From a bacterium (lineage in GTDB: Bacteria > Zixibacteria > MSB-5A5 > GN15 > FEB-12), in assembly GCA_043811375.1 (NCBI GenBank), contig JBDRNJ010000064.1, positions 72,749-136,748 on the forward strand: DNA of 64,000 nucleotides, written 5' to 3'. Below are positions 4,453 to 62,156 of this stretch, one piece after another; the first letter of the stretch is position 1, and each line of letters opens with the position of its first letter. The notes under the pieces were generated by a model. The model saw nothing but the letters and a program-made list of their open reading frames with translations, made no database searches and was not told where the DNA came from. The position numbers and the translations under genes are program-made.

Positions 4453-4499
4453 TGGATTTCGAGTTTACCGCTCGTAATTACGAAAACTTCATTTGTTAG

Positions 4500-26342: not shown

Positions 26343-27680
26343 GTGATGAAACGAATTGCTGGTATTTTGCTGTTGATGCTGTCATTTGCGTCGCTTGCAT
26401 ACGCTGACACTGCACCAACGGTCGCCCAGGTTGCCGGAAAGTGCATGACCTGCCACAAGGAGAAATCCCCAGGCCTTTATCAGCAGTGGTTTATGTCTCA
26501 GCACGCCATGCATAAGGTGACATGTATTGATTGTCATGGTGCTCAGCAGGGCGACAAGGACGGTTACATGCACGAGGGTGCCCTTATCGCCACCCTGGTG
26601 ACGCCCAAGGACTGCGGCGCCTGCCATGAGAAAGAGCGCATGGAGGTTGAGAATTCCTACCATGCTCATGCCGGCGAGATTCTCGAGTCCGCAGATGCTT
26701 ATCTGGCTCATGTGGCCGGCGGCGAACCGGTGGCCATCACCGGATGCGAAAGCTGCCACGGGGGGAAAGTGCAAATCGACCCAGGTTCACCCAACATGCT
26801 GTCGAGAAAGAGTTGGCCCAACTCCGGCATCGGGCGACTCAACCCTGATGGCTCCAAGGGATCATGCAACGCCTGCCACACGCGGCATTCGTTCTCAATC
26901 GCCCAGGCTCGCAAGCCGGAAGCGTGTTCCAAGTGTCACCTGGGACCCGACCACCCACAGAAGGAAGTGTACGAGGAATCCAAGCATGGTAATGCCTACT
27001 ACTCGCACATAGATAAAATGAATATCGACTCCGATCGTTGGGTTGTCGGCATAGATTACTTTGAGGCTCCGACTTGCGCCACCTGTCATTTATCTGCGAC
27101 TACATCCACAGCAGTAACACATGACGTTGGCGATAGAATAAGCTGGACACTGCGACCGCCCGTTTCGAAGCACAAAGACAACTGGCAGGTTAAACGCGCT
27201 AACATGAAGACCGTATGCAATACCTGCCACAGCAGCAGTTTCCCGGATGGCCACTATTACCAATTCGATGCTCTCGTGAAGCTCTACAACGAAAAATTCG
27301 CCAAACCGGCCGGGGAGATCATGAAAATCGTCAAAGAGCGCAAGCTTATGAAAAGCCCGGCTGCGTTTGGAAACAAGATCGAATGGGTCTACTGGGAGCT
27401 ATGGCATCATGAAGGTAGACGGGCTCGGCACGGAGCGGCCATGATGGGACCGGATTACACATGGTGGCACGGCATTTATGACGTCGCCCAGCATTTCTAT
27501 TTCAAATTGCTTCCTGAGGCTCACAAGTTCAACGATCCCGAGTTGAATGCGTATCTTGACAAATTGATCCATGACGATCCCATGCACGCCTGGATAACTA
27601 CTCCGACTGAAGAACTGAAGGAGAAAATCCGTTCCGGCGAAATGCAAAAGATCTATGAAGGTCTTTTCGAACAGAATTAG
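26343..27680 (+). CDS. Octaheme cytochrome c, hydroxylamine oxidoreductase family (probably reductive type)
   Basis: Signal peptide and 8 CxxCH; CHTRH.FS, CHLGPDHPQ.E.YEESKHG, APTCATCH, MGPDYTWWHG. Confidence 0.9.
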   Translation: MMKRIAGILLLMLSFASLAYADTAPTVAQVAGKCMTCHKEKSPGLYQQWFMSQHAMHKVTCIDCHGAQQGDKDGYMHEGALIATLVTPKDCGACHEKERMEVENSYHAHAGEILESADAYLAHVAGGEPVAITGCESCHGGKVQIDPGSPNMLSRKSWPNSGIGRLNPDGSKGSCNACHTRHSFSIAQARKPEACSKCHLGPDHPQKEVYEESKHGNAYYSHIDKMNIDSDRWVVGIDYFEAPTCATCHLSATTSTAVTHDVGDRISWTLRPPVSKHKDNWQVKRANMKTVCNTCHSSSFPDGHYYQFDALVKLYNEKFAKPAGEIMKIVKERKLMKSPAAFGNKIEWVYWELWHHEGRRARHGAAMMGPDYTWWHGIYDVAQHFYFKLLPEAHKFNDPELNAYLDKLIHDDPMHAWITTPTEELKEKIRSGEMQKIYEGLFEQN

Positions 27681-27689
27681 GAGGTCGTC

Positions 27690-42000: not shown

Positions 42001-42102
42001 CGGCAGGTTGCTGTACTTAAACAATCCAAGAGCAATGACACTAATCAGCAGAATTACTACAATGAGACGATTTCTTAGTACTAGTTCAAAATGTCGTTTC
42101 AT
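39007..42102 (-). CDS. czcA: CzcA-family heavy-metal RND permease
   Basis: DAFPDIS, EVERLITFP, GPISTGLGE, RLRPVLMT, GSEVQRPLA; lacks the CusA Met triad. Confidence 0.9.
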   Translation of the reverse strand: MKRHFELVLRNRLIVVILLISVIALGLFKYSNLPTDAFPDISPVMVPVFAEAHGMAPEEVERLITFPIESAMNGLPGVRLIKSTSAFGMAVIYVYFEDDVDIYFARQIVAERLASVSGELPELHEQPGLGPISTGLGEVFMYYLTADSTVDTEGKPLDTYLREVNDWIIKYQLQTVPGVTKILSMGGHVLQYQIKINPYALNKYKLGLEDIVVAISNNNRNAGGQFLVLGSEEYLVRGIGLIEGRDDLRNIQLKVVDGTPIRLGDVAEVDFGREVRRGVVTLNGKEEVVAGIVMKLFGTNTSEVIAGLNQRTPEVQESLPQGVHLVPYYNQSALVNNAVNTMRDALLQGALLVIFILAVFLGNLRSAFIVALALPVCALIAAIFMSIADMSANLMSLGGIAIAIGMLGDASVVIVENTYRLLGDEKYKNRDKREIIVAACKEVARPVIFSVSIIIIVFLPLFTLEGIEGKMFSPMAFTITFALLGSLVAALIFSPALSSLFLKQKQRKEFFLIRGLKNIYRPFLRLVLRFKVAVLVLSLTAFVLTIFLVPHLGTEFIPTLEEGAIQVNVTMAPSISLVKATETIMKLERIVMGFGPVEQTVAKIGRPEAGSHPHPVNSSHIQIMLKPQEEWQEYNSKEELIEALNKKLSDYPGVQLVFSQPIQNMFDELLSGVKTQLAIKLYGEDLTTLRTKAEEVKEVIQPVEGLVDLSTEQSFGQPQVQIIADREACSRYGVDVTDILEVVELAIGGEVISQIFLNTRRFGIHVRYDERYRDDPESIRNMLVHTSEGVLIPMSQVAKVKTLIGPIQINREKNQRRWIISGNVRGRDMGSVVSDIKKLVRENIELPAGYYLEYGGQFENQERAMKRLSIIVPATLFMIFLLLYMSFGTVRSATLIFINVPLALIGGVLGLYLTGEYLSVPASVGFIALFGIAVQNGLVLVSYVNLLRDEGMSTVDAIVQACMLRLRPVLMTALTTILGLVPLLLSHGMGSEVQRPLAVVVVFGLLSSTFLTLVLIPALYEWFAPRPAQTK

Positions 42103-42117
42103 TTATACTGCCTCCCC

Positions 42118-43110
42118 TTAATGACCATGCCCGGCGTGGGCGTCCAGATTGCTCGTTACAATCTTGGCCTTCAGCTCGAAGGCGCCTTTTGGTACGTATT
42201 CGATGCCTTCACTCAGACCACTCACAATCTGGGTATACTTCGCATCGCTATCGCCTGTGACGACCTCGACGGGTCTGAATCTGTTAGGTCCATCTACGAC
42301 AAATACCACGCTTGTATCGCTGAGATACTGAACAGCATCTTTCTCGACCACAAGATTCTCGTCTCGCCCTTCGGTCGTAATTGACGCTTGTACAAAGGTG
42401 CCGGGTCGCCAGGCGTTATCCGGGTTAGGCAGCGTAATCCTGGCGGTTGCGCTTCTTGTCCGGAAATCAATTATTGGAGTAATGTAATCTATGGTCCCTG
42501 TCGTCGAGTTCATCGAACCAACCGCCTTGATCTGTACCATCTGTCCCTTTTTAACTCGATCGAAATCCTTCGGATAGACCGCCAGGTTGACCCAAACCGA
42601 GGACAGGTCGGCAATTACGTAGATACTGTTTTCTTCAGAGACGAACTCGCCCGGAGTAATATGCCGCTCAATCACCCAACCAGAGAAGGGAGCCGTAATT
42701 GTATATGAATTCATACTTTCATTGCTTTCGACAATTGCCATAACTTTGTCGGTTTCAACGTAATCACCGACTCTGTATGTGGCTTGCTGTGCAATACCGG
42801 CGAACCGAGGCGCAATGTGAGCTACTCTGTCATCGTTAAACCCTACTTCTCCCGGTAATTCAATAGTCCGGTCGATGCGTCCTTGCTTTACAATCGATAT
42901 CGTAATGCCGGCAAGTTTCATGGCTTCCGGAGTCAACTCGACTATGAGCTCTTCATTGTGTCCTTCATGATCGTCGTCATCAGCAAGATCATCATGTGCT
43001 TCTCGGGCCTTTTGTTCGTTGACGTGGTCATGGTCATCTTGAGCCGACACATCAGAAACGAACCAGGGCAACAGCAAGGCAAAAAGTAATATCACAAATC
43101 TATCAGACAT
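42118..43110 (-). CDS. czcB: CzcB-like periplasmic adaptor with His/Asp-rich N-terminus
   Basis: DDHDH..HEGH, ADLSSVWV, WRPGTFV, C-terminal HAGHGH. Confidence 0.88.
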   Translation of the reverse strand: MSDRFVILLFALLLPWFVSDVSAQDDHDHVNEQKAREAHDDLADDDDHEGHNEELIVELTPEAMKLAGITISIVKQGRIDRTIELPGEVGFNDDRVAHIAPRFAGIAQQATYRVGDYVETDKVMAIVESNESMNSYTITAPFSGWVIERHITPGEFVSEENSIYVIADLSSVWVNLAVYPKDFDRVKKGQMVQIKAVGSMNSTTGTIDYITPIIDFRTRSATARITLPNPDNAWRPGTFVQASITTEGRDENLVVEKDAVQYLSDTSVVFVVDGPNRFRPVEVVTGDSDAKYTQIVSGLSEGIEYVPKGAFELKAKIVTSNLDAHAGHGH

Positions 43111-43113
43111 CTC

Positions 43114-44427
43114 TTAATTCTCCTTATCTACACGCAATGCAACGCCGGTGAGGTATTCCAGGGCGATAATCTGTTCTTGAATTGCCAGAAACATGTCATT
43201 GTGCTCAAAGCTAAGATCATTAAGAGATCGTTCTGCTTCAAACAGTTGTGTATATGGTACCCGGCCTGCTTCATATGCACTTTGGAGTGTACGATAAGCA
43301 TATTCCGCGGTGGGCAGGAGCAAAGAATCCAAAGTAGCGTGTTTATTTATTAGTTGATTCAAGCGGATAGCTTGAGACTGAATGTTCGCTCTATTTTCGT
43401 TTTTTATCTGTTCGATTTTGTACTCAATAGAACGCAGCCTGGCATCTATGGTTTTTTGTAAACCCTGATTCCGGTTGAATAATGGGATCGGCAATGAAAC
43501 GCCAAAGAGCAATGACTTAGAGTTATTCACTTCAAATCTCTTGAATCCTCCGCTAAAAGTAATGGTTGGCTTAGCTTCTGCCGCCACCAGTCTTTTCTCA
43601 GCTTGAAGAAGTTCCGATTCACTATGCATTTGCACAATGCCACGAGTGGAATCAATTCGACTTGATAACGAAGCTACGTGATCCTGTAATTTGGTGAAGT
43701 CAGGTTTAGAGTTGATTGATATTTTCAAGCCCGAAGGTTTACCATTCCACAGAGAAACCAAAGTAGCTTCGACAGCCAATACATCTTGCTTTGCCTGGTC
43801 CAGTGTAAGCTGTGACCGTTGTTTTTCTAGCTGGGCGAGAATAAGTTCCGACTGCAGAGCAGCTCCCTTATCAAGTCTGTAAGTTATGTCCTCGACGATT
43901 TCTTTAGCCAATACAACTGACGCTTCAGACAGAATTACATTTTGCTGTGCATGGGCAAGAGCATAGAATCGCTGCTTTGTTTCAAGATAGAGATCAAATG
44001 CCGCCAGCTTTATCTGCAGATTGGTTGCATCGATTTCGGCTTTAGCGACATTTCTTCTTGCGCCCCGCTGTTTGAAAAACTCAAATTCCTGAGCGAGTGA
44101 GACAGAAAATTCAGACTCTTTGAAACCGGGAGCATCCCAGCCGATTTCCCCAAATTCAGCATCCAATTCCGGATTCGACCAGAGACCAGCCTGTTTAAGG
44201 TTGCTGTTTGCGGCCTTTAACAGAAAGCTGAATGACCGAAAAGCCGGGTTTTCAACTGCCACCAGTTTGAGGACATCGTCAAATGATAATATCGAATCAA
44301 CAGATACTATTTTTATGTCGGCAGTATCAAATTGGGCTTGCCAGGAGTCCCATCCTCGGGCATTGGGCGATAAAATCAAGATAATCACCAGGATAGAAGC
44401 TACTGGTAAATAAATGTATCCTTTCAT
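43114..44427 (-). CDS. czcC: CzcC/TolC family outer membrane protein
   Basis: NPEL, LPIPLFNRNQG, AYEAG; position in the operon. Confidence 0.85.
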   Translation of the reverse strand: MKGYIYLPVASILVIILILSPNARGWDSWQAQFDTADIKIVSVDSILSFDDVLKLVAVENPAFRSFSFLLKAANSNLKQAGLWSNPELDAEFGEIGWDAPGFKESEFSVSLAQEFEFFKQRGARRNVAKAEIDATNLQIKLAAFDLYLETKQRFYALAHAQQNVILSEASVVLAKEIVEDITYRLDKGAALQSELILAQLEKQRSQLTLDQAKQDVLAVEATLVSLWNGKPSGLKISINSKPDFTKLQDHVASLSSRIDSTRGIVQMHSESELLQAEKRLVAAEAKPTITFSGGFKRFEVNNSKSLLFGVSLPIPLFNRNQGLQKTIDARLRSIEYKIEQIKNENRANIQSQAIRLNQLINKHATLDSLLLPTAEYAYRTLQSAYEAGRVPYTQLFEAERSLNDLSFEHNDMFLAIQEQIIALEYLTGVALRVDKEN

Positions 44428-46004: not shown

Positions 46005-47303
46005 ATGAGCCAAATGAGAATCTTTATCCCGATCACTGCCTTGCTTATGATCAGTTTCGGCTATTCGATGAATCTGTCGGCCGACGAGGTCGTCCGACCC
46101 ACAGAAATCAAGAGCAAGCGGCAGGTCATCTATGACCAGCCAACTTACGCGAAAATGGCCCGGTTGTGGAAAGACTATTATGATGAGTATCCATCCGAAA
46201 ATGCTTACGCCAACTGGATGTATGCCACCCGGTACGCCGAGCAGGAAGATTATGCCCGGTTACTGGATGTGGGCATGGAGAAGTATCCTGCCAACCCCAT
46301 GTTGCTGTACCTGAAATCCATGCTTCGTCACGGGGGCCAGGACGACGCGCAGGAGCGGAAGTATCTTGAAGAAGCAGTACGTCTCGATCCGGACTACGCT
46401 GACCCGTGGTTCTCCCTTGTGATTGTCTACATGAATGCGCGCGACGAGGAGCGGCTGAACCTTGCTCTGCGCCATCTGCTCGAGAGCGGGTCCATCACCG
46501 ATGAGGTGATGGATTACAATTACAATACACTGATCGGTCTTGAAGAGAACGCCATTCTCATAACCAACGGTGACAATGATACCTACCCGGCGTGGATTCT
46601 GACACGAATACTCCGGATCCGTCCCGATGTAGATATCGTTAACCGCAGCCTGTTGAATTCGGAATGGTACCCGCTGTATGTCATTGAGCAGGGGCTGCCC
46701 CGGTTCATCAGTAGGAGCCAACTGGAGAAGCTGCGCGACTCTGCGGCGAAAAGGCTGAAAAAGGGAGATACGGGTGTGCCTCCGGGAGGGTTGGTTGGCG
46801 ATACGCTCATTAAGTTGCTTGTGAATTCGGCTGAGCGGGCTCGGCTGCCGGTTTATTTTGCAACTACACTTTATGTCACCGAAGATCTGAAAGAGCTGGC
46901 CGAGAACGGCAGGCAACTCGGCCTGGCGACACTCGTCACACCATCCGATATGCCATACTACGACCAACTGCGGAACGTTTTCGCTACGTGGACGACCAAA
47001 TTTCGGACCGGCGGATTGGATAGCTGGAGCCTGCATCATGCACCCAAAGCTGATGCAGGCCGATCATTGGTGCGTAATTATGTTTCGGGTATCGCGGTTA
47101 ACCTGCCGGTGCTGAAGAAAAACGCACCGGAACTTCGCCTTTCGCTGTTTAACTGGTATATTGCACATATCGAGAAACACCTCAGTGAGGAAATGAGACA
47201 CAAGGTCGCTCAGACATGGGCATGTTACGGATCGGACCTAATGCACGTTGATGAATGGTGCAAGAAACAGGGATTGAAGTGCCCGGAGCCACAGGAACAG
47301 TGA
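46005..47303 (+). CDS. Secreted TPR-like protein with a DUF2723/TMEM260-like C-terminal segment
   Basis: Signal peptide; helical repeats; NAILITNGDNDTYPAW...RPDVDIVNRSLLN..WY. Confidence 0.7.
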   Translation: MSQMRIFIPITALLMISFGYSMNLSADEVVRPTEIKSKRQVIYDQPTYAKMARLWKDYYDEYPSENAYANWMYATRYAEQEDYARLLDVGMEKYPANPMLLYLKSMLRHGGQDDAQERKYLEEAVRLDPDYADPWFSLVIVYMNARDEERLNLALRHLLESGSITDEVMDYNYNTLIGLEENAILITNGDNDTYPAWILTRILRIRPDVDIVNRSLLNSEWYPLYVIEQGLPRFISRSQLEKLRDSAAKRLKKGDTGVPPGGLVGDTLIKLLVNSAERARLPVYFATTLYVTEDLKELAENGRQLGLATLVTPSDMPYYDQLRNVFATWTTKFRTGGLDSWSLHHAPKADAGRSLVRNYVSGIAVNLPVLKKNAPELRLSLFNWYIAHIEKHLSEEMRHKVAQTWACYGSDLMHVDEWCKKQGLKCPEPQEQ

Positions 47304-47836
47304 ATCCGGAGTGGGACTGTTTTTTTCGCTGCCGACAGGGAGACGAAGAAGCGTGGCGCGTGTTGACGGAAAAATATCGGTCACGCCTTTTGACACTGGC
47401 GCTGCTTATTACCGGATCAGGCGCTGCGGCGGAAGACGTCGTTCAAGAGACATTCGTCCGGGCGCTAGGCGGCGCCATTAAGAATACCTCAGGCACGGTA
47501 CACGGTTTCCTGGGAACTATTGCCTTTCGCCTGGCCGTGAAAGAAACGCAGCGTATGCGGCGATATGTTCGCCTGGATGCGCTTGAACGATTCGATCACG
47601 GTGAGAATCCAATGGAACAACTCTTGAAGGATGAGCGTCAGCGTTTCATCGCGGGGGCAATTGGCAGCCTTAATGTAGAGCACCGCGACGTTCTCCTGTT
47701 GCGTTGCTATGGTGGGCACAGTTATGAGGAGATCGCCAAACTGTTGAAAGTTCCGATAGGAACAGTTAAGTCACGGATTTTCTATGCCGTCAAGTCCTGT
47801 CGCGACATATTACGGCGGAAGGGAATGTTAGAGTAA
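47300..47836 (+). CDS. ECF RNA polymerase sigma factor
   Basis: AEDVVQETF, SYEEIA, PIGTVKSR; GTG start overlaps the upstream stop. Confidence 0.92.
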   Translation: MNPEWDCFFRCRQGDEEAWRVLTEKYRSRLLTLALLITGSGAAAEDVVQETFVRALGGAIKNTSGTVHGFLGTIAFRLAVKETQRMRRYVRLDALERFDHGENPMEQLLKDERQRFIAGAIGSLNVEHRDVLLLRCYGGHSYEEIAKLLKVPIGTVKSRIFYAVKSCRDILRRKGMLE

Positions 47837-48258
47837 TGCACATCAGTGAAGATAAACTTATCGAGTACGCACTCGAAATCGTCGATGTTGATAACGAACG
47901 TGCAGAGATCGAAGAGCACCTTGAGACCTGTCAATTGTGTCGCTCAAGATTGAGAGAGGTGCGGAGCGATATTGATACCATCAGCAGCATTCGGCTAGAC
48001 CGACCGGTTGCAGCGACACCGTCGAGCACTACGTGGCACGACGCAGTTTACCCATTACTTCGGGTGGCTGCTCTCATCGTAATCGGTCTGGTGGCGGGAT
48101 TCGGTACATCACTATGGTTTGAGGATAAGCCGGCACGCGTGGTTTCGCAATATGTGACGCTGTCATCACCGGCAGACTCCGTTAGCCGGTATGCTGCATC
48201 AGATGCAACTGATATATCATCGGACTATTACAGGCATATGTTACAGGATATTAAGTAA
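47836..48258 (+). CDS. Zinc-binding (zf-HC2/ZAS) anti-sigma factor with TM
   Basis: HLETCQLC (HxxxCxxC) followed by a TM segment. Confidence 0.85.
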   Translation: MHISEDKLIEYALEIVDVDNERAEIEEHLETCQLCRSRLREVRSDIDTISSIRLDRPVAATPSSTTWHDAVYPLLRVAALIVIGLVAGFGTSLWFEDKPARVVSQYVTLSSPADSVSRYAASDATDISSDYYRHMLQDIK

Positions 48259-48929: not shown

Positions 48930-50324
48930 TTACTTGTAATGCTGCCGAATGAACTCCTCGGTCTCCGGCAAACCTCCCTGGAGGATGAGGTAACCGTTAT
49001 GCGGCTCACGCTCCGTGATTTCGTGATTGACGGGGTGTCGCATCATGCGCATGACTTCGTCATGGTCATCGGTGTGACCGAGCACCCAGCATAATTTCAT
49101 TAAAGCCGTCTCCGGGAGCATGTTGTCAAGGGGTATTACGCCGATGTCGAGCAGGTCACGTCCGGTGTCATAAACATACATCTGAGTAAATCCCCAGAGA
49201 GTTTGCACGGTCATAACAACGTGAACTCCATTGTCAATGGCCTTTTTCAGGGCTGGATAGAGCGGCTTATTGACATGGCCAAGACCGGTGCCCGCGATAA
49301 CGATTCCCCGGTAGCCTTTCTCCACGTATGCGTCAACCAGGTTCGGGTTCATGCCCGGATAGTAATAGAGGATGGAGACGTGATCATCGTATACGGGGTC
49401 GATGACAACCTTGCGTTGCCGGTCACGCGACAGGTAGTCGTCCGTGAGATATTTGAACTTATCGTTGTGGACAATACAGAGCGGGATATCTCCTAACGTC
49501 CGGAACGTGCTGCGATATGAACTGTGCATCTTACGACACCTTGTTCCACGGTGGAGCAGCCCATATTGATCCGACGTAGGGCCGAACATGCAGATCTGTA
49601 CTTCCGCAATGTCGCCGTGGGCAGCCGCGTTCACGGCGTGAATCAGGTTGATTGCGGCGTCGCTACTCGGTCTATCAGAGCTCCGCTGACTGCCGACTAT
49701 GACAATCGGGACGGGGCTATTCTGAACCATGAACGTCAGTATGGCGGCGCTATGGCCCATTGTATCGGTGCCGTGGCCGATAACGATGCCGTCAGCACCG
49801 GCTTCGATTTCCTCGCCGATCGATTTGGCCAGAGTGATATATTGCTGTGCCGCCATGTTCTCGGAAAATACTCCGAACAGCTTTATTGTTTTCAGGTTGC
49901 AGATATTGGCCAGCTCCGGAACCGCGCCGTACAGTTCGCCGGGCGAGAAGGCCGGGATCACGGCACCAGTCCGGTAATCCAGACGGGATGCGATTGTGCC
50001 CCCGGTTCCGAGGAGCGTTACATTTGGAAAATCAGGATTCCGTGGAAATTCCTTTTCCGGGATTTTATAAATCGCCTCCTTGCGTCCGAGCTCCTCTATC
50101 TTACGAATGCGGTTCACGTTTACGCCGACGTTATAACCGTTTTTCATTTTGATCACGATGTATTTGTCGTTGTGAGATCCGCTACGCGGCAATATGACTC
50201 CATTGAAGATACTACCAGCGTCATTGGTTACGCTCACGTCGCTCCAAACTCTTACACCCCATTCACTCAATTTTCTTCGGGCGAGGCCGGTGTAACCTTT
50301 TAACTCGTCTTTTTCCTGTCCCAT
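48930..50324 (-). CDS. gatD: Glu-tRNA(Gln) amidotransferase subunit D
   Basis: GatD N-terminal domain (K..NGYNVG), TGGTIASRLDYRTG, HGTDT, GSQRSSDRPSSD, KMHSSYR. Confidence 0.92.
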   Translation of the reverse strand: MGQEKDELKGYTGLARRKLSEWGVRVWSDVSVTNDAGSIFNGVILPRSGSHNDKYIVIKMKNGYNVGVNVNRIRKIEELGRKEAIYKIPEKEFPRNPDFPNVTLLGTGGTIASRLDYRTGAVIPAFSPGELYGAVPELANICNLKTIKLFGVFSENMAAQQYITLAKSIGEEIEAGADGIVIGHGTDTMGHSAAILTFMVQNSPVPIVIVGSQRSSDRPSSDAAINLIHAVNAAAHGDIAEVQICMFGPTSDQYGLLHRGTRCRKMHSSYRSTFRTLGDIPLCIVHNDKFKYLTDDYLSRDRQRKVVIDPVYDDHVSILYYYPGMNPNLVDAYVEKGYRGIVIAGTGLGHVNKPLYPALKKAIDNGVHVVMTVQTLWGFTQMYVYDTGRDLLDIGVIPLDNMLPETALMKLCWVLGHTDDHDEVMRMMRHPVNHEITEREPHNGYLILQGGLPETEEFIRQHYK

Positions 50325-50325
50325 A

Positions 50326-52323
50326 TCATTTACATTCAGTGATTCCCTGCGGCTTACTTTCAGCATATTGCCGGAGTTTTTGTTCGATAACTTCATTTAC
50401 TTCCCTGCCCGGTACAATGCCCCTGAGATCAGGCATGACACATCCCATAAGGAACCTGATACGTCCTTCGCAATGTTCAGAGCGCCAGTGATGTTTTTCA
50501 TCGGCCAGTATTAAATCGATCTTTCCAGCCCAGTCCGGAACATTCTCTGCCGGAGTGACTTCATCTATCAACTTGTTAAGCGGTTTCTGTGGATCGTCGG
50601 CCATGCGCATTACCAGCCGCTTCCAGGCATCGAGGATTACAGGCCTGATTGCCACAAGGCGGAATAACTCACAACATCTTTCCTTCGAGATATTGCCCGG
50701 AACAGATGATTTGCGATTTAATCCTTTCAGTTTTTCGCCGAAAAAGAAACATGCTTGCCTGAGATCAGCCCCGGCTTCCTCGACAACGAGGTCCACCAGT
50801 GCGGCCCCGCCTCTCCGGATGAGGTAATGAATAGTGCTGAGGGGAACGCCGACAGCACTGTATTCCGCTTCCCTAACCCACGGTGGTGGCGGCAGGTCGG
50901 CGTTGAGTCTCTCAACACGGTCACGTGTAACTTCGATTGGCGGGCTGTCCGTATCCGGATACATGCGGTCGGGTCCTGGAAGGATACGCTCGAAATCGGT
51001 GCTCCCGTCCTCGAAAGGCTGGCGCGTTTCATTTGGCACCCCGTCAATAGCATCCTCGTAACGAATGCGGATCTCCTCCACCGCTGTTATTGTGTCCTGC
51101 AGAGGTCCCCATACCACCACGAGCGAATCATCGGTGTTAAGGCCAATTTCTTTTACGAACGATTCCAACTCGGTATCCGAATCCTCGTATTCAGGCCACT
51201 GCTCGCAGTGGACCAGTATGGGCGGTTCATCGAGGGCGGCGATTACCCTTATCCGTCCCGCAAGCTCATCGGCGAACGTACGGTTCGGCTGGGTCGGCCA
51301 TGCGAGTGTACCGGCGAGCCCGGTCAGTCTCACTGCTCGAACGCAGAAATTTCCCTCGCCGCATGCCAGCTCAGGTAGTTCCATCTTTGCGACCCTCTTT
51401 TCCCAGTGTTCCTTCCTGAGAAACGGCAGCTTAGATTTGGAACACAAAGAGGTGACGTCTGCATGAGTGATTTTGATATCTTCAGGCGCCTTGAATCCGC
51501 GCCTGTTGAGGTCATCCCTTAACTCGAGGAGGTTCTTCTGGCGCACGGCCTCGCCGTGGACAAGCTTCTTAGCCCAGCCGGCACGCGGGACACCCTTGAT
51601 TTCCACCCGCCGACCACCGCGAATCGATACGTTAACGTCCTGCCTGCTCGCACCGATGCCTGTCCTGACGTGCCCGGTGCTCCTGCAGACTCGTCCGATA
51701 AGAAGGATCGCCTCCACGACTTCTTCGGGTGTCCGCAGGTCCGGACCCGTAACCGTCTCGATCAGCGGCATGCCGAGGCGGTCGGTTCGCCAGACGATGA
51801 GATGCCCCTGGTCGGAAACCTCACGGCAGCTGTCTTCCTCCATGCTGACCTGCAGAATCGAAAGTTCCCTGCCACGGAAGGGAAGCCTGCCGTTTACCCC
51901 CACGATGGTAGTCCTTTGGAATCCGGTCGGAATCGAGCCGTCAAGATACTGCTTGCGGGCGATATGGACCTCATCGACTATGTCGCATCCAAGCATGAGG
52001 CACTGTTCAATAGCAATATCCAGAGCCTTCTGGTTCACGAGAAACGGCGGCGTGTCATCCATCTCATAGGTGCAAACGTTGCTCTCATGTAGAAGGTACA
52101 TAATATTCTTTTTGGTTTTGAACTCCATGAGAGCCGTTCCGTCGTATTCACCGAACTCCGACAGCGTCGGCCTCATGTGACGTATTAATATGCCGTCATG
52201 TTCCCTGGTGTAAACGCCCGCGGGACACCGACAGAACATCTTGTGCACCGTGTCCAACTGTTGATGGACTTCCAGCCCGGTAATCAGGCCGATTTCAGTA
52301 TAGTCGAGTTCTTCACTCACCAT
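50326..52323 (-). CDS. gatE: Glu-tRNA(Gln) amidotransferase subunit E
   Basis: GLEVHQQL, RPTLSE.GE.D, RKQYLDGSIPTGFQRT, EEDSCR, RQDVNVSI, EIKGV, insertion domain, RMYPDTD. Confidence 0.92.
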   Translation of the reverse strand: MVSEELDYTEIGLITGLEVHQQLDTVHKMFCRCPAGVYTREHDGILIRHMRPTLSEFGEYDGTALMEFKTKKNIMYLLHESNVCTYEMDDTPPFLVNQKALDIAIEQCLMLGCDIVDEVHIARKQYLDGSIPTGFQRTTIVGVNGRLPFRGRELSILQVSMEEDSCREVSDQGHLIVWRTDRLGMPLIETVTGPDLRTPEEVVEAILLIGRVCRSTGHVRTGIGASRQDVNVSIRGGRRVEIKGVPRAGWAKKLVHGEAVRQKNLLELRDDLNRRGFKAPEDIKITHADVTSLCSKSKLPFLRKEHWEKRVAKMELPELACGEGNFCVRAVRLTGLAGTLAWPTQPNRTFADELAGRIRVIAALDEPPILVHCEQWPEYEDSDTELESFVKEIGLNTDDSLVVVWGPLQDTITAVEEIRIRYEDAIDGVPNETRQPFEDGSTDFERILPGPDRMYPDTDSPPIEVTRDRVERLNADLPPPPWVREAEYSAVGVPLSTIHYLIRRGGAALVDLVVEEAGADLRQACFFFGEKLKGLNRKSSVPGNISKERCCELFRLVAIRPVILDAWKRLVMRMADDPQKPLNKLIDEVTPAENVPDWAGKIDLILADEKHHWRSEHCEGRIRFLMGCVMPDLRGIVPGREVNEVIEQKLRQYAESKPQGITECK

Positions 52324-54766: not shown

Positions 54767-54823
54767 TGGCGGGGGGTACGAGACGAGTTCCGCAACTGGG
54801 TCATTCACAATTCGACTGCATGA
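54767..54823 (+). repeat. att-like repeat copy E
   Basis: tggcggggggtacgagacgagttccgcaactgggtcatt...tga, reading WRGVRDEFRNWVIHNSTA*. Confidence 0.8.
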
Positions 54824-54850: not shown

Positions 54851-54970
54851 CTACGGGCACGGTGGCGGTTCCAGTCCACCTGTGAATAGATATGCCACCC
54901 GGTAAGTAATGTCCGCCACGTCTATGGCTCCCGCCGGGCCATCAATACCATCAACGTTACCTTCCGCACG
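54851..54970 (-). pseudogene. Orphan dockerin-like C-terminal fragment
   Basis: AEGNVDG...IDVADITYRVAYLFTGG..PPPCP with no credible upstream gene. Confidence 0.6.
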
Positions 54971-55327
54971 GTGTACAGCTTTCGCCGAAGCAACACATGC
55001 CCGATATTCGATATGGCATGTCTGTCTCGATGATGTACAAATCGAAATACTCATCGCCCGAAACATCGAATACTCCAATCGCGATCGTGTTCTCACCCGG
55101 TACCAGGTACTGTGTAACATCTATTGGAGCTACACTTTGGTGATTATCACAGTTACAAGGGACATTGTTTATGCAACCGGTCTTGCCACATCCGCCGTCA
55201 TACTCACCGATAAAAAGGCCGTTCGCTGTGTTGGATATCTGTTGTCCTCAGGTAATGTGTGCCTTCGGCTTACTACCCTGCCGGCCACCTGTCTTGACAA
55301 ATCACGTGGCCTCTCGTATACTGTCCT

Positions 55328-55897
55328 ATGTCCAAAACTGACGCGGAATTATGGCAGGAGGTTCTTGCGGGAAGCGCTGCCGTATGGAGCGAGCTTGTCA
55401 GGCGATATCAGCCTTTGGTATATGCAGTCAGTATCCGCGCCGGACTATCTGCGGGAGACGCAGCTGATTGCTTCCAGCAGACCTGGGTAAAGCTCTATGA
55501 GAATCGCGAGGATATCCAAAACCCGTCCCGTTTATCGGCCTGGCTGGTCACAACCGCCAAACGCGAGGCCCTGCGTCTTCGTCGCCAAGCGGAGCGTAAT
55601 CGCGGAGAGCTCCTTGAGGGAGAGGCGGTTGACCTGAACCCATTGCCTGATGAGGAGTTGGCAATGGTGGAGCGCCAGATGCAACTGGAGATTGCCATAA
55701 AGGAACTCGCACCACGATGCCGCCAGTTGATTGAACTCTTTTTCTTTGCTCCGGAGAAGCTTACCTATGAACAGATTGCCTCTACTCTCGGCATGTCAAG
55801 CAACAGCCTCGGACCCTTTCGGCGTCGTTGCCTGAAACGCCTCAACGAGATTCTTGTGAGAAACGGTTTTTTAGGGGCACGAAATGACCTTCGGTAA
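55328..55897 (+). CDS. ECF RNA polymerase sigma factor
   Basis: DCFQQTW, WLVTTAKRE, TYEQIA, SLGP.RRRCL. Confidence 0.92.
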   Translation: MSKTDAELWQEVLAGSAAVWSELVRRYQPLVYAVSIRAGLSAGDAADCFQQTWVKLYENREDIQNPSRLSAWLVTTAKREALRLRRQAERNRGELLEGEAVDLNPLPDEELAMVERQMQLEIAIKELAPRCRQLIELFFFAPEKLTYEQIASTLGMSSNSLGPFRRRCLKRLNEILVRNGFLGARNDLR

Positions 55898-55905
55898 GCT
55901 CTGTA
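55879..55905 (+). promoter_or_regulatory. Putative cognate ECF promoter ACGAAAT-N13-CTCTGTA, copy 1
   Basis: Boxes and spacing identical to 60824..60850. Confidence 0.65.
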
Positions 55906-55926
55906 TGTTGGAAGGTTAAAGGAGAA

Positions 55927-56502
55927 GTGGTGGCAAAGCATTTGAGTCGACAAGAGTTGATTAAGGCTGCACGGAAACGTCCATTCGTTTTGGACGGCCA
56001 CCTGAAGTCATGCACGGAGTGCCGGGACGCAGTGATCCTGCTGAAAGCATTCGACGTCTCCGGTTGCCTGCCCCTTCCCGATGCTCCCTCGCCCTGGGTG
56101 GAGCGAGCCGCCTCGCTTGCTAAGAATGTGGGAGTGTTGGAGGGAGTAAAGACCATAATAGCGAAACTGACCTTCGATTCATGGGCTGTTCCACGACCGA
56201 TTGGAGTCCGGGGCCAGAGCTCTCTGGGCGACCGCCGTATTCGTTTTGAGTCCGAGAGCATGGTTTTTGACCTCCGAGCAGAGCGTAAGACTACCGGGTG
56301 GGCATTTGTGGCTCAGGTCACAGCGGAGGGTCCGACGGTTGCTTCCACGATTCTTGAAATCGGGAAAAGAAAGTTACATGCTGACCCTGGCGGTCTTTTT
56401 CAGTGGACAAGCAGCAGACCGCTGACCGGCGTGACTATTCGTTCCGGCAAAACGATTGTTGTAATTCCGGAGATGGTATGGAAGCGACCTCGATCCAGTT
56501 AG
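55927..56502 (+). CDS. Cytoplasmic ZAS-type putative anti-sigma factor
   Basis: HLKSCTEC (HxxxCxxC), no TM segment, LTFDSW..GVRG..RRIRF C-terminal domain. Confidence 0.75.
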   Translation: MVAKHLSRQELIKAARKRPFVLDGHLKSCTECRDAVILLKAFDVSGCLPLPDAPSPWVERAASLAKNVGVLEGVKTIIAKLTFDSWAVPRPIGVRGQSSLGDRRIRFESESMVFDLRAERKTTGWAFVAQVTAEGPTVASTILEIGKRKLHADPGGLFQWTSSRPLTGVTIRSGKTIVVIPEMVWKRPRSS

Positions 56503-59204
56503 CCGTCAAACGATTCCTGAGCAAAGGAGTTATCAGTGGGATCGCCGAGGACGATCTCGCAGCGAACTGCGATAACCTGATCAGGGAGACGGCGCGGCGG
56601 TCTCTCAAGCAGGCACTGACCCTGGCCAAACGGTTTGTCTATAGGTCAGAGATTCGTAACGGCCCGCTGGCTCTGTCAGCCTACCGGGCCTTGGCTCGTG
56701 TCACCCATATGAGCGGCGCTCACGCCGACGCGTTGGACGCCTACTTAAAGGCCCGACAGCTAGCACTTCGGGACCCGCTCGTACGCTCCCGCATTGATCG
56801 GGCACTGGTAGACGTTTATATGTACTTTGGCGACTTCGACAAGGCCAAGCGCTCGGCACAACGGGCAATCCTCGCCTTTGGTCGGTTGAGTGCAGAATCC
56901 GACCTCGCACAGACACGCGTTAATTATGCCAACTTGCTCCATCGGCAGGACCGCCACAGAGACGCGGAACGGCTATATCGACAGGCAGCTGAGTATTTCG
57001 AGACCACTGACAATCATCTGGCCACAGTGCGATGTTACTACAACCGAGCTAACACACTGGTCCAGCTCTTTGATTTCACCAGTGCAGAAGAACTCTATGA
57101 AAAGGCGGCGCGAGTTTACGAAGCGGAAGGATATACGCTTGATGCTAATGACGCGCGTTACGGTCTGGCATGGCTGCGGATGCTGGACGGCGAGTTTCAC
57201 ATTGCACTACTTGAACTGTCTGCCTGTGAGAAGGTCTACCGAGAGGCAGGTGCTCTCCGGGGAGAGGCGCTCTGTATGCTCGACCGCGCTGAGGTCTACC
57301 TTGGGCTGGGTCTATATGCTGACGCCCGTGAGGCCAGTCGGGTCGCCGAACGAATGTTTTTGCGCCTGAAACTTCGCTATGAACGAGCGAAGTCATCGCT
57401 TTATAGGGCTCAGGCAGCCTTTGCTCTGGGGGCGAAGCGTGAGGCACGCACTGCTCTGGAACGTGCCAGGAAGGGCTTCGGGGCTGAGAAGAACCGTGGC
57501 TTCCTGGGTGCAGTTCATTTGCTGGCAGCCGATATGGAAGGGAAGAACGAGGCCCGAAGGAATAGAGAATTAAGGTTGGCTCGAACCAGATTTGCCCGAG
57601 CACAGTTGCCTCTTTGGCAAGCTGTGTGTGACTTGAAAGAAGCCGCCGATCCGACGCGAGCTCGGGCTGTTTTGGCACGACTTAACAATAATGGTGCCGT
57701 CCATCGGGTGCCGCACCTCTATGCCATTTGGCAGACCGCGTCAGGTGACTACAAATTCCGACAGGGTGATCACCCAGCGGCGCGTTGCCACTGGCAAAAC
57801 GCCGCCGATCGGCTTGACGCAGTGCGTGCCCAACTTCCCCCAGTGGAGCTACGGACTGCTTACGCTCGAAAACAGAGTTCGCCTCACGCCCGGCTGATCG
57901 CTTCAGAAATGGACCACGACCCCATGCTTGCGGCGGTTTGGTCGGAGAGGTATAAGACGGCTGGTGTCTGGTCGCAGATCTCCCGGTCCGTCCTGAACCA
58001 GCCGACACGGCAGAAAGCGGAAGAGAGCTTGCACTCCCTGGCGCGCCGCGTAGCGGCCCTGGCGAATCAGATCGGAGGATACTATGGTGAGCGGGGCTTG
58101 TCCGCTCAGACAAGTCACAGAACCCTCTCAAGGTGGCAGAATCAATTGCGCGAAGAACTAATAGCTCTCGAGAAGAACAACGGTGGCAGAGTGGAGGCCA
58201 CAGAAATGCTGGCGCGCGACATACAGGTTGTTTCTCATCGCCTTCCCGTTGTTCAGTTTCACGTGGGAGATGATGAAATAATCGCCTTTGTCCACGACAG
58301 GGGTGAGACTTCGCTCCGCACGCTCAAGCACGGTCGCAAACGAGTCGATCTGGCCATGCGACGCTGGCGATATATTCTCGAAAGCGAGTTGCTTGTCGGT
58401 CATCTTGGTCACGTGAAAGTTTTGGATGCGGAACGGGCTGTCTGGCAGGAGTTGGGCGATTGGCTGTGGGCTCCGCTGGAGGTAAGGAGTGACTCTCCGG
58501 CGGTGTTGATGCTGCCTGAAGGGGAGTTGGCCAATCTGCCGTGGCAGGCCCTCATTGTCGAGGGTAAACCACTGGTGGAACGTCATCAATTCGTGCTTGC
58601 CCCCAGTCTCAGGCATTACAATGCTTCACGCTCGATTCAGGTCAGATCAGACAAAGTCGTGATCTTTAGAGGGAAGGCTGAGAGACTTCCCTATGTAGAT
58701 CATGAACTGGAAGTCCTGGCTGACCTCGCTCAGGGTGCGGCCACTACCAAAAGCCCCTGTCGGCGAGAAGATTGGCCCTCGCACGGGGAATTCCGAGTAT
58801 GGCACTATGCCGGGCACACGGTCTTGCGTTCCGATAACCCATTCTACTCATCCCTGGTTTTGGAAGACGGGCCGCTCTTTGCAGTCGATTTTCGTCTGAA
58901 GGAATGTCAGGTGGGGCTGGTGTCGCTGGCGTCATGCCGCTCCGGGGAGCAGATCACCATGCCTGGCGAGGAAGCTACCGGGCTTGTGCGGTCGTTACTG
59001 GAGATGGGAGCTCGCAATGTCGTAGCAGGACACTGGCCGGTCTCCGACGAAACCACCGCTCTCTGGATGGAATCGTTTTACGGCCGGTTTTTTGAGGGAG
59101 ATAATGTAAGTGGGGCAGTACGTCACGCTGCCCGCACAGTCCGCGAAGTCCATCCATCCGCTTATCACTGGGCGGCTTTCTCCATTTTTGGCGTGGGTGA
59201 ATAA
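56478..59204 (+). CDS. TPR-CHAT (caspase-like) protease
   Basis: Long TPR array; LPEGELANLPWQAL; His in HYAGH; Cys in SLASCRSG; GHWPVSD; HWAAF. Confidence 0.92.
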   Translation: MEATSIQLAVKRFLSKGVISGIAEDDLAANCDNLIRETARRSLKQALTLAKRFVYRSEIRNGPLALSAYRALARVTHMSGAHADALDAYLKARQLALRDPLVRSRIDRALVDVYMYFGDFDKAKRSAQRAILAFGRLSAESDLAQTRVNYANLLHRQDRHRDAERLYRQAAEYFETTDNHLATVRCYYNRANTLVQLFDFTSAEELYEKAARVYEAEGYTLDANDARYGLAWLRMLDGEFHIALLELSACEKVYREAGALRGEALCMLDRAEVYLGLGLYADAREASRVAERMFLRLKLRYERAKSSLYRAQAAFALGAKREARTALERARKGFGAEKNRGFLGAVHLLAADMEGKNEARRNRELRLARTRFARAQLPLWQAVCDLKEAADPTRARAVLARLNNNGAVHRVPHLYAIWQTASGDYKFRQGDHPAARCHWQNAADRLDAVRAQLPPVELRTAYARKQSSPHARLIASEMDHDPMLAAVWSERYKTAGVWSQISRSVLNQPTRQKAEESLHSLARRVAALANQIGGYYGERGLSAQTSHRTLSRWQNQLREELIALEKNNGGRVEATEMLARDIQVVSHRLPVVQFHVGDDEIIAFVHDRGETSLRTLKHGRKRVDLAMRRWRYILESELLVGHLGHVKVLDAERAVWQELGDWLWAPLEVRSDSPAVLMLPEGELANLPWQALIVEGKPLVERHQFVLAPSLRHYNASRSIQVRSDKVVIFRGKAERLPYVDHELEVLADLAQGAATTKSPCRREDWPSHGEFRVWHYAGHTVLRSDNPFYSSLVLEDGPLFAVDFRLKECQVGLVSLASCRSGEQITMPGEEATGLVRSLLEMGARNVVAGHWPVSDETTALWMESFYGRFFEGDNVSGAVRHAARTVREVHPSAYHWAAFSIFGVGE

Positions 59205-59216
59205 GGAGAGTAACAT

Positions 59217-60644
59217 ATGCAATCTGAGTCAATGGCAACTTCACTGAGGCTCTTGTTTCTGGCGGTTGCGCTGATCCTATGGCCCTTGATATCGCTCCAT
59301 GCCGGCAACCAGACTGGCAACTTCAAGGTGGAAGAACTTGTGTGCAGAATGGAGCTAGGCTTCAGCATTGACACAGTCAACAATGCCTACGGAACGACAG
59401 TCAAAGGTTTTGTACAGCAAACCAGTTGTTACCTGCTTGGAACCCCGTCGGGCCAGAACGCAGAGAGTCTTGCCGTAGAGATCAGTGAGCTGACGGGAGT
59501 TCAATACTGTGGTGCCAATTATTATCTCGACGCGCCTGAACCTTTTCAGCTGAGCCAACCCTTTCTGGATGTCTACGGCACGGGTGACTACCAGACACAG
59601 TCGGCGGCCAGTGTCTTGAGTCTGACCACGGTCCACACAATCACCGAAGGCAGCGGTGTCAAGGTGGCCGTAATCGACTGCGGGGTGAATCTCGATCATC
59701 CGGAGTTTGTCGCGAGGTCCGGCGGAGTGTACTCGGGGTGGGATTTTGTCGATGGTGACTCTATTGCCAACGATGAACCGGGAGGAGTTGGCTCCGGCCA
59801 CGGTACGTTTGTCGCAGGTGTTGTCAGATTGGCGGCGCCGGGTTGCGACATTTATGCCTACCGCGTGCTCGATACCCTCGGCCGAGGGGACGGATACACT
59901 GTCACAGAGGCTCTCTTGCAAGCGATTGAAGACAGCTGCAAGGTGGTCAATCTGAGTCTTGGTATGGTCGGTCGACATGATGCTCTCGATGATGCCCTGA
60001 AATACGCCGAAAGCCAGGATATCACCGTCGTTACATCTGCCGGCAATGACTCAACGGAGATTGACTTGGTGTTCCCGTTTCCTGGGAAAAAGGCATCGTG
60101 CCTGACAGTCGCGGCTCTCGATTCTTTGAATATCAAAGCTGATTTCTCTAATTATGGGTATAAGGTGGACATCTGCGCTCCGGGCACTCAAATCTATAGT
60201 CCCTTTCTGGACACTTCTTATGCCTGGTGGAATGGGACGAGCTTCGCGGCGCCCTTCGTTACCGGTCTGGCGGCGCTGATATATTCTGTCGATTCAATGT
60301 TCACTTGTGAAGAGGTTGACTACATCATAAGCGAAACGGCGACAGACATTGACTTTCTTAATCCCGGCATGGAAGGTAAGCTTGGTACTGGTTTAGTCAA
60401 TATGGTTGCCGCCCTTGAAATGGTTACCAGTCTGTTGTGCGGCGATGTTGATGCCTCTGGCGACGTCACCGTTTCAGATCTGACCTATTTGATTGACTAC
60501 CTCTTCCGCGGTGGAGCAGCACCGTACCCGCTACTGCGCACTGGTGACGTTGACAGCACCTGTGACGTGAATGTCGGAGACGTGACGTATCTGGTAGCCT
60601 ACTTGTTCTTAGGCGGACCCGCTCCCTGCCAAGGTAGTCCGTAA
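59217..60644 (+). CDS. Secreted S8 subtilisin-like protease with C-terminal dockerin-like domain
   Basis: Signal peptide; IDCG, HGTFVAG, SAGN, GTSFAAP; GDVD..VSDLTYLIDYLF motif repeated twice. Confidence 0.93.
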   Translation: MQSESMATSLRLLFLAVALILWPLISLHAGNQTGNFKVEELVCRMELGFSIDTVNNAYGTTVKGFVQQTSCYLLGTPSGQNAESLAVEISELTGVQYCGANYYLDAPEPFQLSQPFLDVYGTGDYQTQSAASVLSLTTVHTITEGSGVKVAVIDCGVNLDHPEFVARSGGVYSGWDFVDGDSIANDEPGGVGSGHGTFVAGVVRLAAPGCDIYAYRVLDTLGRGDGYTVTEALLQAIEDSCKVVNLSLGMVGRHDALDDALKYAESQDITVVTSAGNDSTEIDLVFPFPGKKASCLTVAALDSLNIKADFSNYGYKVDICAPGTQIYSPFLDTSYAWWNGTSFAAPFVTGLAALIYSVDSMFTCEEVDYIISETATDIDFLNPGMEGKLGTGLVNMVAALEMVTSLLCGDVDASGDVTVSDLTYLIDYLFRGGAAPYPLLRTGDVDSTCDVNVGDVTYLVAYLFLGGPAPCQGSP

Positions 60645-60823
60645 ACACACGACAGTCTCTGATAGAGGCTGGCTGTCGCAACGCGAATGGCCGGTCGTCA
60701 GCCATTTGGTCCTCACGCGGTCGGCTGTATCTGCCTCCGGTGTTGCTGCCTTCAGCAGGTCTTATTTGCCTCTCTTACCATACTAATACGGGTAGCGATA
60801 AAGATTTCGCTCTTTTCACGTGA

Positions 60824-60850
60824 ACGAAATCTACGGCAACATCCTCTGTA
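60824..60850 (+). promoter_or_regulatory. Putative cognate ECF promoter ACGAAAT-N13-CTCTGTA, copy 2
   Basis: About 70 nt upstream of the lipoprotein gene; identical boxes to 55879..55905. Confidence 0.65.
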
Positions 60851-60921
60851 GGTCGAAAGCTGATTTCTAGAAAACCGCCGTTAGTACAACGGCTTGTAAA
60901 AACCGTAAAGGAGGTAGAAGT

Positions 60922-61866
60922 ATGATGCAGAGGAGAAAAGGTCTCCTGGTGTTTCTGCTGGGAGGGCTGGTGGCTGCCATCAGTGTTGGCTGCTCCAGCG
61001 AAAGCCCGTTAGCACCAATCAGTAGCCCTATCACGCAAGAAGCGAGAGATGGCTCTGGAGATCCCTCGTTGTCGGCGGGCAATATTCAGTTTGATTCCCG
61101 TGTGGCTACAATCGATCTGGCCGAGAGGAAGTTGACGTTTACGGGCGCAAGCTACGTTGCTATTGCCGCTGAGGACTGCGAGATCGTCCGCTTGGACGGT
61201 GGGACGGTAACACCGATCCTGTTCAGCGATATCCAGGTCGGCGACTCGGCACGGGTCTGCGGGATTCTGCAGTCCGACAGTGAAGTTCTTGCCAACAAAA
61301 TTCGGATTTTCGCAGAGTCTGAGTGCCCCGACTATGATGTTGCATTCCGGGACACTATCGCAACCATCGACTACGCGGCAGGCTCTTTCACGGTAACAGG
61401 CCGGTCCGAAGTCATCCTCGTGGATGACAACACAGTGATATGGGGGCACACTTCGCAGGCTCTTTCTGGTGGTGGTGGCAACGGCGGTGAAGGCAATGTT
61501 GTCAAAGGCATGAGGATCTACTACGAATTTACGGATTTGGCGGTAGGCCACGTTGTGGAAGTAAGAGCCGATATTGTAAGTCTTGACACGTTGCTGGCGG
61601 TTTCCATTAAAGTGGCAAACTGCAGTTTCAAGAAAAGCGTGGAATTCAGTGCCTATCTCGCCTCGGTTGATGTTCCTGCGCGGATTGTTACCTTTGACGG
61701 TCTACCCTGGATCGCGATGGTTTGCCCTCAGGCAGCACTCATAGATTTGGACGGTCAGCCACTAACTCTGGCGGACTTTGCTTCCGGTGATTTTGTGGCT
61801 GTGAAAGGATTCCCGCTCGAAGCGGACTCATTGTTCGTTTGTCTGATGGAGAAGATTGAACCCTGA
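60922..61866 (+). CDS. Lipoprotein with three DUF5666-like OB-fold repeats
   Basis: Lipobox SVGC; repeated ..ID....TF.G...F.D..VG..V.V.G unit. Confidence 0.75.
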   Translation: MMQRRKGLLVFLLGGLVAAISVGCSSESPLAPISSPITQEARDGSGDPSLSAGNIQFDSRVATIDLAERKLTFTGASYVAIAAEDCEIVRLDGGTVTPILFSDIQVGDSARVCGILQSDSEVLANKIRIFAESECPDYDVAFRDTIATIDYAAGSFTVTGRSEVILVDDNTVIWGHTSQALSGGGGNGGEGNVVKGMRIYYEFTDLAVGHVVEVRADIVSLDTLLAVSIKVANCSFKKSVEFSAYLASVDVPARIVTFDGLPWIAMVCPQAALIDLDGQPLTLADFASGDFVAVKGFPLEADSLFVCLMEKIEP

Positions 61867-61946: not shown

Positions 61947-61976
61947 ACGGGTGCGGGTTTTTTTACCCGCACCCGT
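61947..61976. terminator. Perfect hairpin, probable terminator
   Basis: acgggtgcgggt-T6-acccgcacccgt. Confidence 0.65.
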
Positions 61977-62100: not shown

Positions 62101-62156
62101 AGGCGGGGCTACGAGACGATTTCCGCAACTGGGTCATCGAAAATGCAGCTGCCTGA
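62101..62156 (+). repeat. att-like repeat copy F
   Basis: aggcggggctacgagacgatttccgcaactgggtcatcgaaaatgcagctgcctga, reading LRDDFRNWVIENAAA*. Confidence 0.8.

Follow-up and report, generated by a model that had tools for sequence, protein, structure and literature searches.

A sigma factor, TPR-CHAT protease and subtilase cassette of Zixibacteria with a candidate soluble anti-sigma factor and predicted promoters

Gene content and conservation of the cassette

The DNA analysed here is a 64,000-nucleotide (nt) stretch of contig JBDRNJ010000064.1 (GenBank:GCA_043811375.1, positions 72,749 to 136,748), hereafter the window, from a 3.56-Mb, 95% complete Zixibacteria genome. At 55328–61866 it contains five co-oriented open reading frames (ORFs) which encode, in this order, a sigma factor of the extracytoplasmic function (ECF) type, a small protein (gene 2), a tetratricopeptide repeat (TPR) protein ending in a caspase-like CHAT domain (TPR-CHAT), a subtilase (S8) and a DUF5666 lipoprotein (Table 1). 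ORF calls and a Pfam scan placed all five genes, the lipoprotein gene at 60922–61866 included, where a first-pass annotation had reported them; it had also proposed that an anti-sigma factor encoded by gene 2 is cut by the CHAT protease. The catalytic residues of the subtilase are D154, H195, N277 and S342, and the intact D/H/S triad claimed for this secreted enzyme was thereby confirmed. Its dockerin-like tail was present as well, but it had roughly 100 matches across the source genome and is therefore regarded as a host tag rather than a feature of the module.

At E 1e-20, the window CHAT had matches in 104 of the 201 genomes available for the phylum. Our clade 1 set consisted of 60 loci from 52 genomes, representing 60 of the best 65 CHAT matches (5 at contig ends were excluded). 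The order sigma-gene 2-CHAT-subtilase, which the first-pass annotation had expected to recur, was kept in all 60, with CHAT or the subtilase split in four loci and two loci running off the end of the stretch; a DUF5666 gene was present in 42 of the 60 stretches. Clade 2 comprised 20 weaker matches (22–29% CHAT identity): the four-gene order was kept in 16, gene 2 alone escaped detection in 3, and 1 was rearranged. The cassette relatives carry Zixibacteria names, and since all loci are kin, these counts show conservation and not independent origins. No relative was found in the viral contigs searched, and no experimental study of the cassette in literature searches, which left most subscription papers uncovered.

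For CHAT, the ATG at 56478 is a likelier start than the GTG at 56403, because the 25-nt overlap with gene 2 that it produces is the commonest one (28/61 loci); the overlap noted earlier is thus real, with a corrected start. A structure model of the last 270 residues (predicted local distance difference test score, 94.6) had Csx29 as its best match (E 1.8e-12, template modelling score 0.75), followed by separases, SAVED-CHAT and DdvA. Residues H776, H780 (nt 58815) and C820 (nt 58935) were invariant in 59/59 CHAT sequences, and the catalytic-type His is the second His of HYAGH (H780), which aligns with the His-Gly of Csx29. The likeness to Csx29 and the intact His/Cys dyad (HYAGH, LASC) reported earlier therefore stand, except that the His had to be reassigned. 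Conserved acids were E743 (47/47) and D857 (46/47). A 19-residue hydrophobic segment of 1.8 or more occurred in none of the 59 sequences, nor did a membrane or signal segment.

Gene 2 has an HxxxCxxC motif (H25, C29 and C32) and an upstream His (H5), the His/Cys ligand plus HxxxCxxC that defines zinc-binding anti-sigma (ZAS) proteins. No Pfam match was obtained with the window gene 2 alone, and zf-HC2 was matched weakly by 7 of 75 members. By the hydrophobicity threshold used for CHAT, 0/75 members had a membrane or signal segment, in agreement with the earlier description of a protein free of transmembrane segments with an anti-sigma-like motif. In the structure model, a helical head is connected to a beta-sandwich through a loop of low confidence, within which R95 lies. 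The model had no clear fold match (none in Foldseek at E 0.001; best Z 7.3, with the head barely tested) and no structural match to Csx30 in Foldseek and Z-scored fold comparisons; the carboxypeptidase-regulatory-like Pfam domain ascribed to the +1 protein of ECF54 was not found in the 75 members, though a beta-sandwich was predicted.

A gene 2 profile found 1342 representatives. In 148 of the best 150, residues D84, S85, R95 and R103 were invariant (148/148), and the zinc ligands were kept in about 83% of aligned rows (H25, 98/117; C29, 97/117; C32, 100/120); fused gene 2-CHAT proteins were absent from the best 150 matches (all ≤232 amino acids), no search having been aimed at fusions. Clade 2 proteins, which gave a 98% profile match to gene 2, have mostly lost the zinc ligands and retained DS..VR..R. 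The window sigma also retrieved a subtilase-sigma-+1-CHAT locus of Nonomuraea, whose +1 protein has no zinc head; it could be linked by profiles only, weakly to gene 2 (36%) and better to clade 2 (86%), comparison of the single sequences giving no link to gene 2. These sequence patterns suggest that the linker and beta-domain are the part of gene 2 that travels with CHAT, possibly as its docking or cleavage site.

Table 1. Positions of the cassette genes and associated features (window coordinates unless a locus number of a related genome is given; aa, amino acids)
Feature	Position	Strand	Description
ECF sigma factor	55328–55897	+	189 aa; clade 1 of the family; Sigma70_r2/r4
Gene 2	55927–56502	+	191 aa; soluble putative anti-sigma factor: ZAS-like helical head, FDSW..VRG linker, beta-sandwich C-domain
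TPR-CHAT	56478–59204	+	908 aa; cytoplasmic caspase-like protease; CHAT E 8e-39, TPR_12
Subtilase	59217–60644	+	Secreted; signal peptide, intact triad, host dockerin-like tail; core module gene; Peptidase_S8
DUF5666 lipoprotein	60922–61866	+	Predicted output gene; variable module member
Sigma-70-type promoter	55294–55322	+	TTGACA-17-TATACT (11/12); ends 5 nt 5′ of the sigma ATG
P1	55877–55903	+	Predicted sigma-dependent promoter spanning the sigma stop codon, facing gene 2-CHAT-S8; G[A/T/C]ACG[A/G]AA-N14-CTCTG
Weak hairpin	60743–60758	+	Terminator-like; 3′ of the subtilase
P2	60822–60848	+	Predicted sigma-dependent promoter; fully intergenic; top-scoring site genome-wide
Perfect 12-bp hairpin	61947–61976	+	Likely terminator; 3′ of the DUF5666 gene
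Repeat E	54776–54805	+	Attachment-site scar; reads like the C-terminus encoded by a large serine recombinase gene
Repeat F	62109–62138	+	Second attachment-site scar; same orientation as E
Gene remnant	54851–55120	-	Ends in host dockerin-like tail; within the E-F segment
Small RNA copies	L350–L363, e.g. L353:1465–1551	- (L353)	Targets L364–L375; RNA without the motif in the sigma-less genomes L348 and L349

Promoter motifs and predicted outputs

Of the 60 clade 1 loci, 43 carried a motif, G[A/T/C]ACG[A/G]AA-N14-CTCTG, where the sigma gene meets gene 2 (shuffle mean 0.06). With variable spacing and corrected regions it also preceded 44 of 51 DUF5666 genes (shuffle mean 0.1), an earlier count based on fixed spacing and imprecise regions having given 26/52, and a hairpin plus T-run lay ahead of it there in 32/38 loci. 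Before the sigma gene it was found in 0/59 regions; autoregulation of the sigma was rejected on this ground, and the genes under its control would thus be gene 2-CHAT-S8 and DUF5666, its own gene being exempt. The first-pass annotation had the freed sigma inducing the module as a whole, a prediction that the motif supports for gene 2, CHAT, S8 and DUF5666 and not for the sigma gene, which has a sigma-70-type promoter instead. From this promoter the sigma is predicted to be transcribed leaderless, as a housekeeping transcript; a similar -10 stood just before the sigma start in 13/60 related loci.

A scoring matrix built from 41 junction sites, none of them from the window, ranked P2 and P1 first and second in the source genome (24.9 and 19.4 bits; third site, 18.7 bits). 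At the same junction, clade 2 never had this motif and instead showed GTATY-N17-19-CTC (11/20 loci), close to the GTATCAG/CTCC published for the ECF54 family (PMC7826278 supplement). The ECF54 motif was detected at only 2/60 clade 1 junctions, and a search near the Nonomuraea locus genes found none, the one match being distant. The number of clade 1 motif sites per genome was 2.6 in 65 carriers and 0.8 in 130 non-carriers; the reversed control gave 0.7, and 6 genomes in which CHAT matched partially were not counted. From these sequence distributions, the motif is predicted to be a sigma-dependent promoter that tracks the sigma clade.

Variation among the clades was also noticed. A divergent sub-clade within clade 1 (L075, L079, L081–L088 and L090) has subtilases of up to 2193 amino acids, no DUF5666 gene and an altered junction motif, and several of its gene 2 copies are devoid of zinc ligands. 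In loci L037, L087 and L272, modules of different clades adjoin, which suggests parallel circuits without crosstalk.

Close to the modules, motif sites precede genes for proteins with 3–4 CHRD domains, FlgD-tailed subtilases, trypsin-like lipoproteins and a GSDH protein (19/36 were scanned). Among hand-picked distal sites of carriers, 16/40 passed a crude gene-start test, and all 16 products had a hydrophobic N-terminus; for non-carriers, 6/20 passed and 3 were hydrophobic. Pfam matches of the distal outputs included four cupredoxins, a YceI protein and peptidases. The exported effectors postulated by the first-pass annotation thus have counterparts among the predicted targets, namely the DUF5666 lipoprotein and exported subtilases.

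Three distal sites led to an unannotated small RNA, a unit of 82–106 nt with a hairpin, an open seed and a terminator, which was present in 16/17 genomes of one Zixibacteria family and in none other of the 201. It had no Rfam match (4 loci checked) and showed double changes at 5/20 pairs. The motif precedes it in 14/14 genomes with a clade 1 CHAT, and the two genomes lacking CHAT have the RNA without the motif. Its 22-nt seed is antisense to the start of a gene for a large secreted Cys-rich protein, covering the start codon and ribosome-binding site, and in 12 of these genomes this target was the sole other match to the small RNA (duplex energies were computed with no shuffle control). It is therefore predicted, from complementarity, that the small RNA silences the large secreted protein. 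The window genome yielded no copy of the small RNA, no antisense partner and no convincing distal site. Some modules also have nearby a lipoprotein that contains a caspase domain (Peptidase C14; L060:12526–13404), with 4 flanking copies.

Comparison with known systems and possible mechanisms

The gene combination is already catalogued as the context of ECF54, where the neighbours of the sigma gene encode a beta-domain protein at +1, a TPR-CHAT protein and a subtilase; the latter two adjoin the sigma in 60/60 loci here. The published context is 100% actinobacterial and includes no putative anti-sigma factor (Casas-Pastor et al. 2021, PMC7826278 supplement; PMC8999054). The present cassette agrees with it in part: its host belongs to Zixibacteria, the order is sigma-+1-CHAT-S8, the +1 protein has a ZAS-like head, and the promoter of the window clade is G[ATC]ACG[AG]AA/CTCTG, which differs in the -35. 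In a quick sigma tree with no named ECF54 member, clades 1 and 2 grouped with 3/4 actinobacterial neighbours against two long-branch outgroups. What is new here is a predicted promoter tracking the clade, named targets, a small RNA and a candidate inhibitor in which several residues are invariant, the available ECF54 sources describing neither a regulon nor a small RNA.

In the type III-E CASP system of clustered regularly interspaced short palindromic repeats (CRISPR), cleavage of Csx30 by Csx29 relieves inhibition of a sigma factor (PMC10028731). Both systems have a cytoplasmic TPR-CHAT of the same fold with a His-Cys dyad, a soluble two-part inhibitor, putative in the cassette, and an ECF sigma whose binding motifs, here predicted, include some within the locus itself (PMC10028731), whereas the cassette has no Cas7-11, CRISPR RNA or Csx31 and its predicted outputs are exported proteins. 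If cleavage holds, it would work like CASP by analogy; it is not a CASP member. DdvA-DdvS of Myxococcus xanthus (PDB 8rot) likewise joins a zinc anti-sigma domain, a TPR-CHAT and an ECF sigma in one unit, but DdvA is a single membrane protein with a periplasmic TPR-CHAT that controls CRISPR and the cyclic-oligonucleotide-based antiphage signalling system (CBASS) (PMC11506125), whereas here there are two separate soluble proteins, not one chain, and an extra beta-domain. RpoE-ChrR, SigH-RshA and ECF270/ECF271 share a soluble ZAS protein encoded at +1, but their available descriptions include no linked CHAT or subtilase, and their motifs differ or are not conserved. The Sigma-E envelope stress response with MicA/RybB also combines a protease-freed ECF sigma, induction of envelope proteins and small RNAs that silence surface proteins; its anti-sigma factor is a membrane protein cut by DegS/RseP, while the candidate enzyme here is cytoplasmic and caspase-like.

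Taken together, we consider with moderate confidence that the cassette is an ECF54-related unit in which gene 2 holds the sigma, TPR-CHAT cuts gene 2, and the freed sigma induces exported surface proteins. The steps would be as follows: 1) the sigma would be made from the observed housekeeping-type promoter; 2) it would be bound by the ZAS-like head of gene 2, as the motif, the gene position and the DdvA/ChrR precedent suggest; 3) TPR-CHAT, which is translationally coupled to gene 2, would be docked by the invariant linker and the beta-sandwich, and a cut presumed to fall in or near the exposed VRG loop would destabilize the inhibitor; and 4) the sigma would fire P1 for more gene 2, CHAT and subtilase, forming a feedback loop, and P2 for DUF5666, with more subtilases, proteins of the CHRD, cupredoxin and YceI types and the small RNA with its predicted silencing role as probable additional targets in relatives. 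The trigger, the weakest step, is probably a peptide bound by the TPR region, for instance a precursor that has not been exported, or a product of the subtilase to which the module is always linked. The purpose is likely cell-surface remodelling or repair, not phage defence.

Several observations weigh against this cleavage model. The residue after H780 is Thr in the window CHAT and Ala in relatives, not Gly, and the CHAT activity of DdvA is still unproven (PMC11506125). The separase residue that binds the arginine at substrate position P1, D2151, has been equated with Csx29 K670 (PMC9729208), to which A861 of the window CHAT corresponds by sequence alignment; arginine specificity through a separase-type pocket is therefore not supported, its acid being missing, and neither is cleavage at R95 of gene 2 by way of such a pocket. 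R95 may instead be a structural or docking residue. As to the promoters, the second-ranked site of the window is only narrowly ahead of the third (19.4 versus 18.7 bits), and the -35 of P1 falls within the last sigma codons in 41/43 loci, so its conservation may be partly coding; the -10 lies past the sigma stop codon in 22/43 loci, and the other motif sites are non-coding. CHAT is itself downstream of P1, as an output or brake could be, the gene-start pass rates of carriers and non-carriers were 16/40 and 6/20, and 11 divergent clade 1 loci with long subtilases lack both the motif and DUF5666. Moreover, all loci are related and from one phylum, the small RNA is from one family, and the host organism is uncultured.

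Alternatively, gene 2 might be a direct zinc/thiol redox sensor like RshA/ChrR, oxidation freeing the sigma and CHAT serving as an output or clean-up protease. HxxxCxxC with the upstream His in most clade 1 members is consistent with such a sensor, as are the position of CHAT under P1 and the cupredoxins, YceI, CHRD and GSDH proteins among the predicted outputs, and soluble ZAS proteins usually answer oxidative stress (PMC8999054). However, most of clade 2 and several clade 1 loci have no zinc ligands and yet keep the linker, beta-domain and CHAT, and a zinc head is absent from the +1 protein of the actinobacterial relative. That four non-zinc residues are invariant while the zinc ligands are dispensable favours a protease-linked role over pure redox sensing, and we regard this alternative as unlikely.

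Slightly less probable to us is that TPR-CHAT acts as a brake or scaffold, degrading the sigma or binding gene 2 uncut, the P1 operon then ending the response. Proteolytic control of the sigma itself has been proposed for ECF54 (PMC8999054), PCaspase cleaves a neighbouring sigma (bioRxiv 2023.06.23.546230), gene 2 and CHAT are predicted to be co-induced from P1, and CHAT has His-Ala and no acidic W+8 residue. Against it, the Csx30 cut in CASP relieves inhibition of the sigma (PMC10028731), the invariant His/Cys dyad argues against a pure scaffold, and inspection by eye showed no comparable site, invariant and exposed, on the sigma apart from the regions that bind DNA and core. Anti-phage signalling of the CASP or DdvA-DdvS kind is the least probable of these alternatives: the characterized TPR-CHAT/sigma pairs are defensive, the unit lies between recombinase scars and silencing of a surface protein could hide a phage receptor, but the absence of Cas genes noted for the window extended to the whole source genome for Cas1 and RAMP (no match), PADLOC matched 8/178 flanking-gene representatives (E 1e-15 and E 1e-10 passes), all with generic domains and none Cas, and the outputs predicted for the sigma consist of exported proteases and of proteins that bind copper or lipids. 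No sign of a role in phage defence was seen.

TPR-CHAT proteins are common, yet the handful studied so far all have links to CRISPR or CBASS. ECF54 has since 2015 been a neighbourhood without a recognized anti-sigma factor or known output, and the candidate inhibitor, promoter, targets and small RNA make the arrangement testable and suggest that bacterial caspase-like proteases may have a job outside defence. An extended version, improbable as a whole, would be a CRISPR-free peptide-sensing circuit: a peptide made by the subtilase is read by TPR-CHAT, the soluble anti-sigma factor is cut at a site that Zixibacteria and Actinobacteria have both conserved, and the sigma, once free, exchanges the surface coat, exported proteins being induced and an old one silenced by the small RNA. 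If true, this would be the everyday signalling source from which Craspase- and DdvA-type defence switches were recruited.

Recombinase scars and neighbouring genes

The att-like copies E and F, which had been reported to flank the block, are real, and they are two of six co-oriented repeat copies in the window (others at 15706, 45577, 48330 and 48785; the last three carry a different 176-nt arm). The repeat reads as a protein tail with third-position variation and was found in 45/201 genomes, often in tandem arrays; it was likewise unmatched in the viral contigs searched. A long frame that continues into the repeat was seen in 1/80 metagenome loci, and its two full-length relatives carry PF00239, PF07508 and PF13408. 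Because this frame enters the repeat and its relatives are large serine recombinases, E and F are read from sequence as attachment-site scars of such an enzyme and the repeat as the 3′ end of its gene. No recombinase was found among the window ORFs scanned, and no tRNA in the window. Repeats lie on both sides of the module in only 4/61 loci and adjoin it in another 5; on this basis it was rejected that the module is mobile in general. In the window, the module is likely carried by a stacked island, in keeping with a regulon that does not extend beyond the cassette.

The scars divide the window into cassettes. Between two of them, a second ECF sigma gene (47255–47836) lies between two unknown genes (46005–48258). 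GatD- and GatE-like genes adjoin at 48930–52323 on the minus strand (GatD_N, Asparaginase and GatB_N), next to a glutamine synthetase gene; GatDE is an archaeal amidotransferase, and its occurrence in a bacterium would be unusual. Elsewhere in the window are two resistance-nodulation-division efflux operons (16387–22269 and 39007–44427), one with heavy-metal-binding domains, two multiheme cytochrome genes (26343–29186), and, at 4092–5245, two 300-nt copies that are 81% alike, each ending in Gly/Arg-rich codons.

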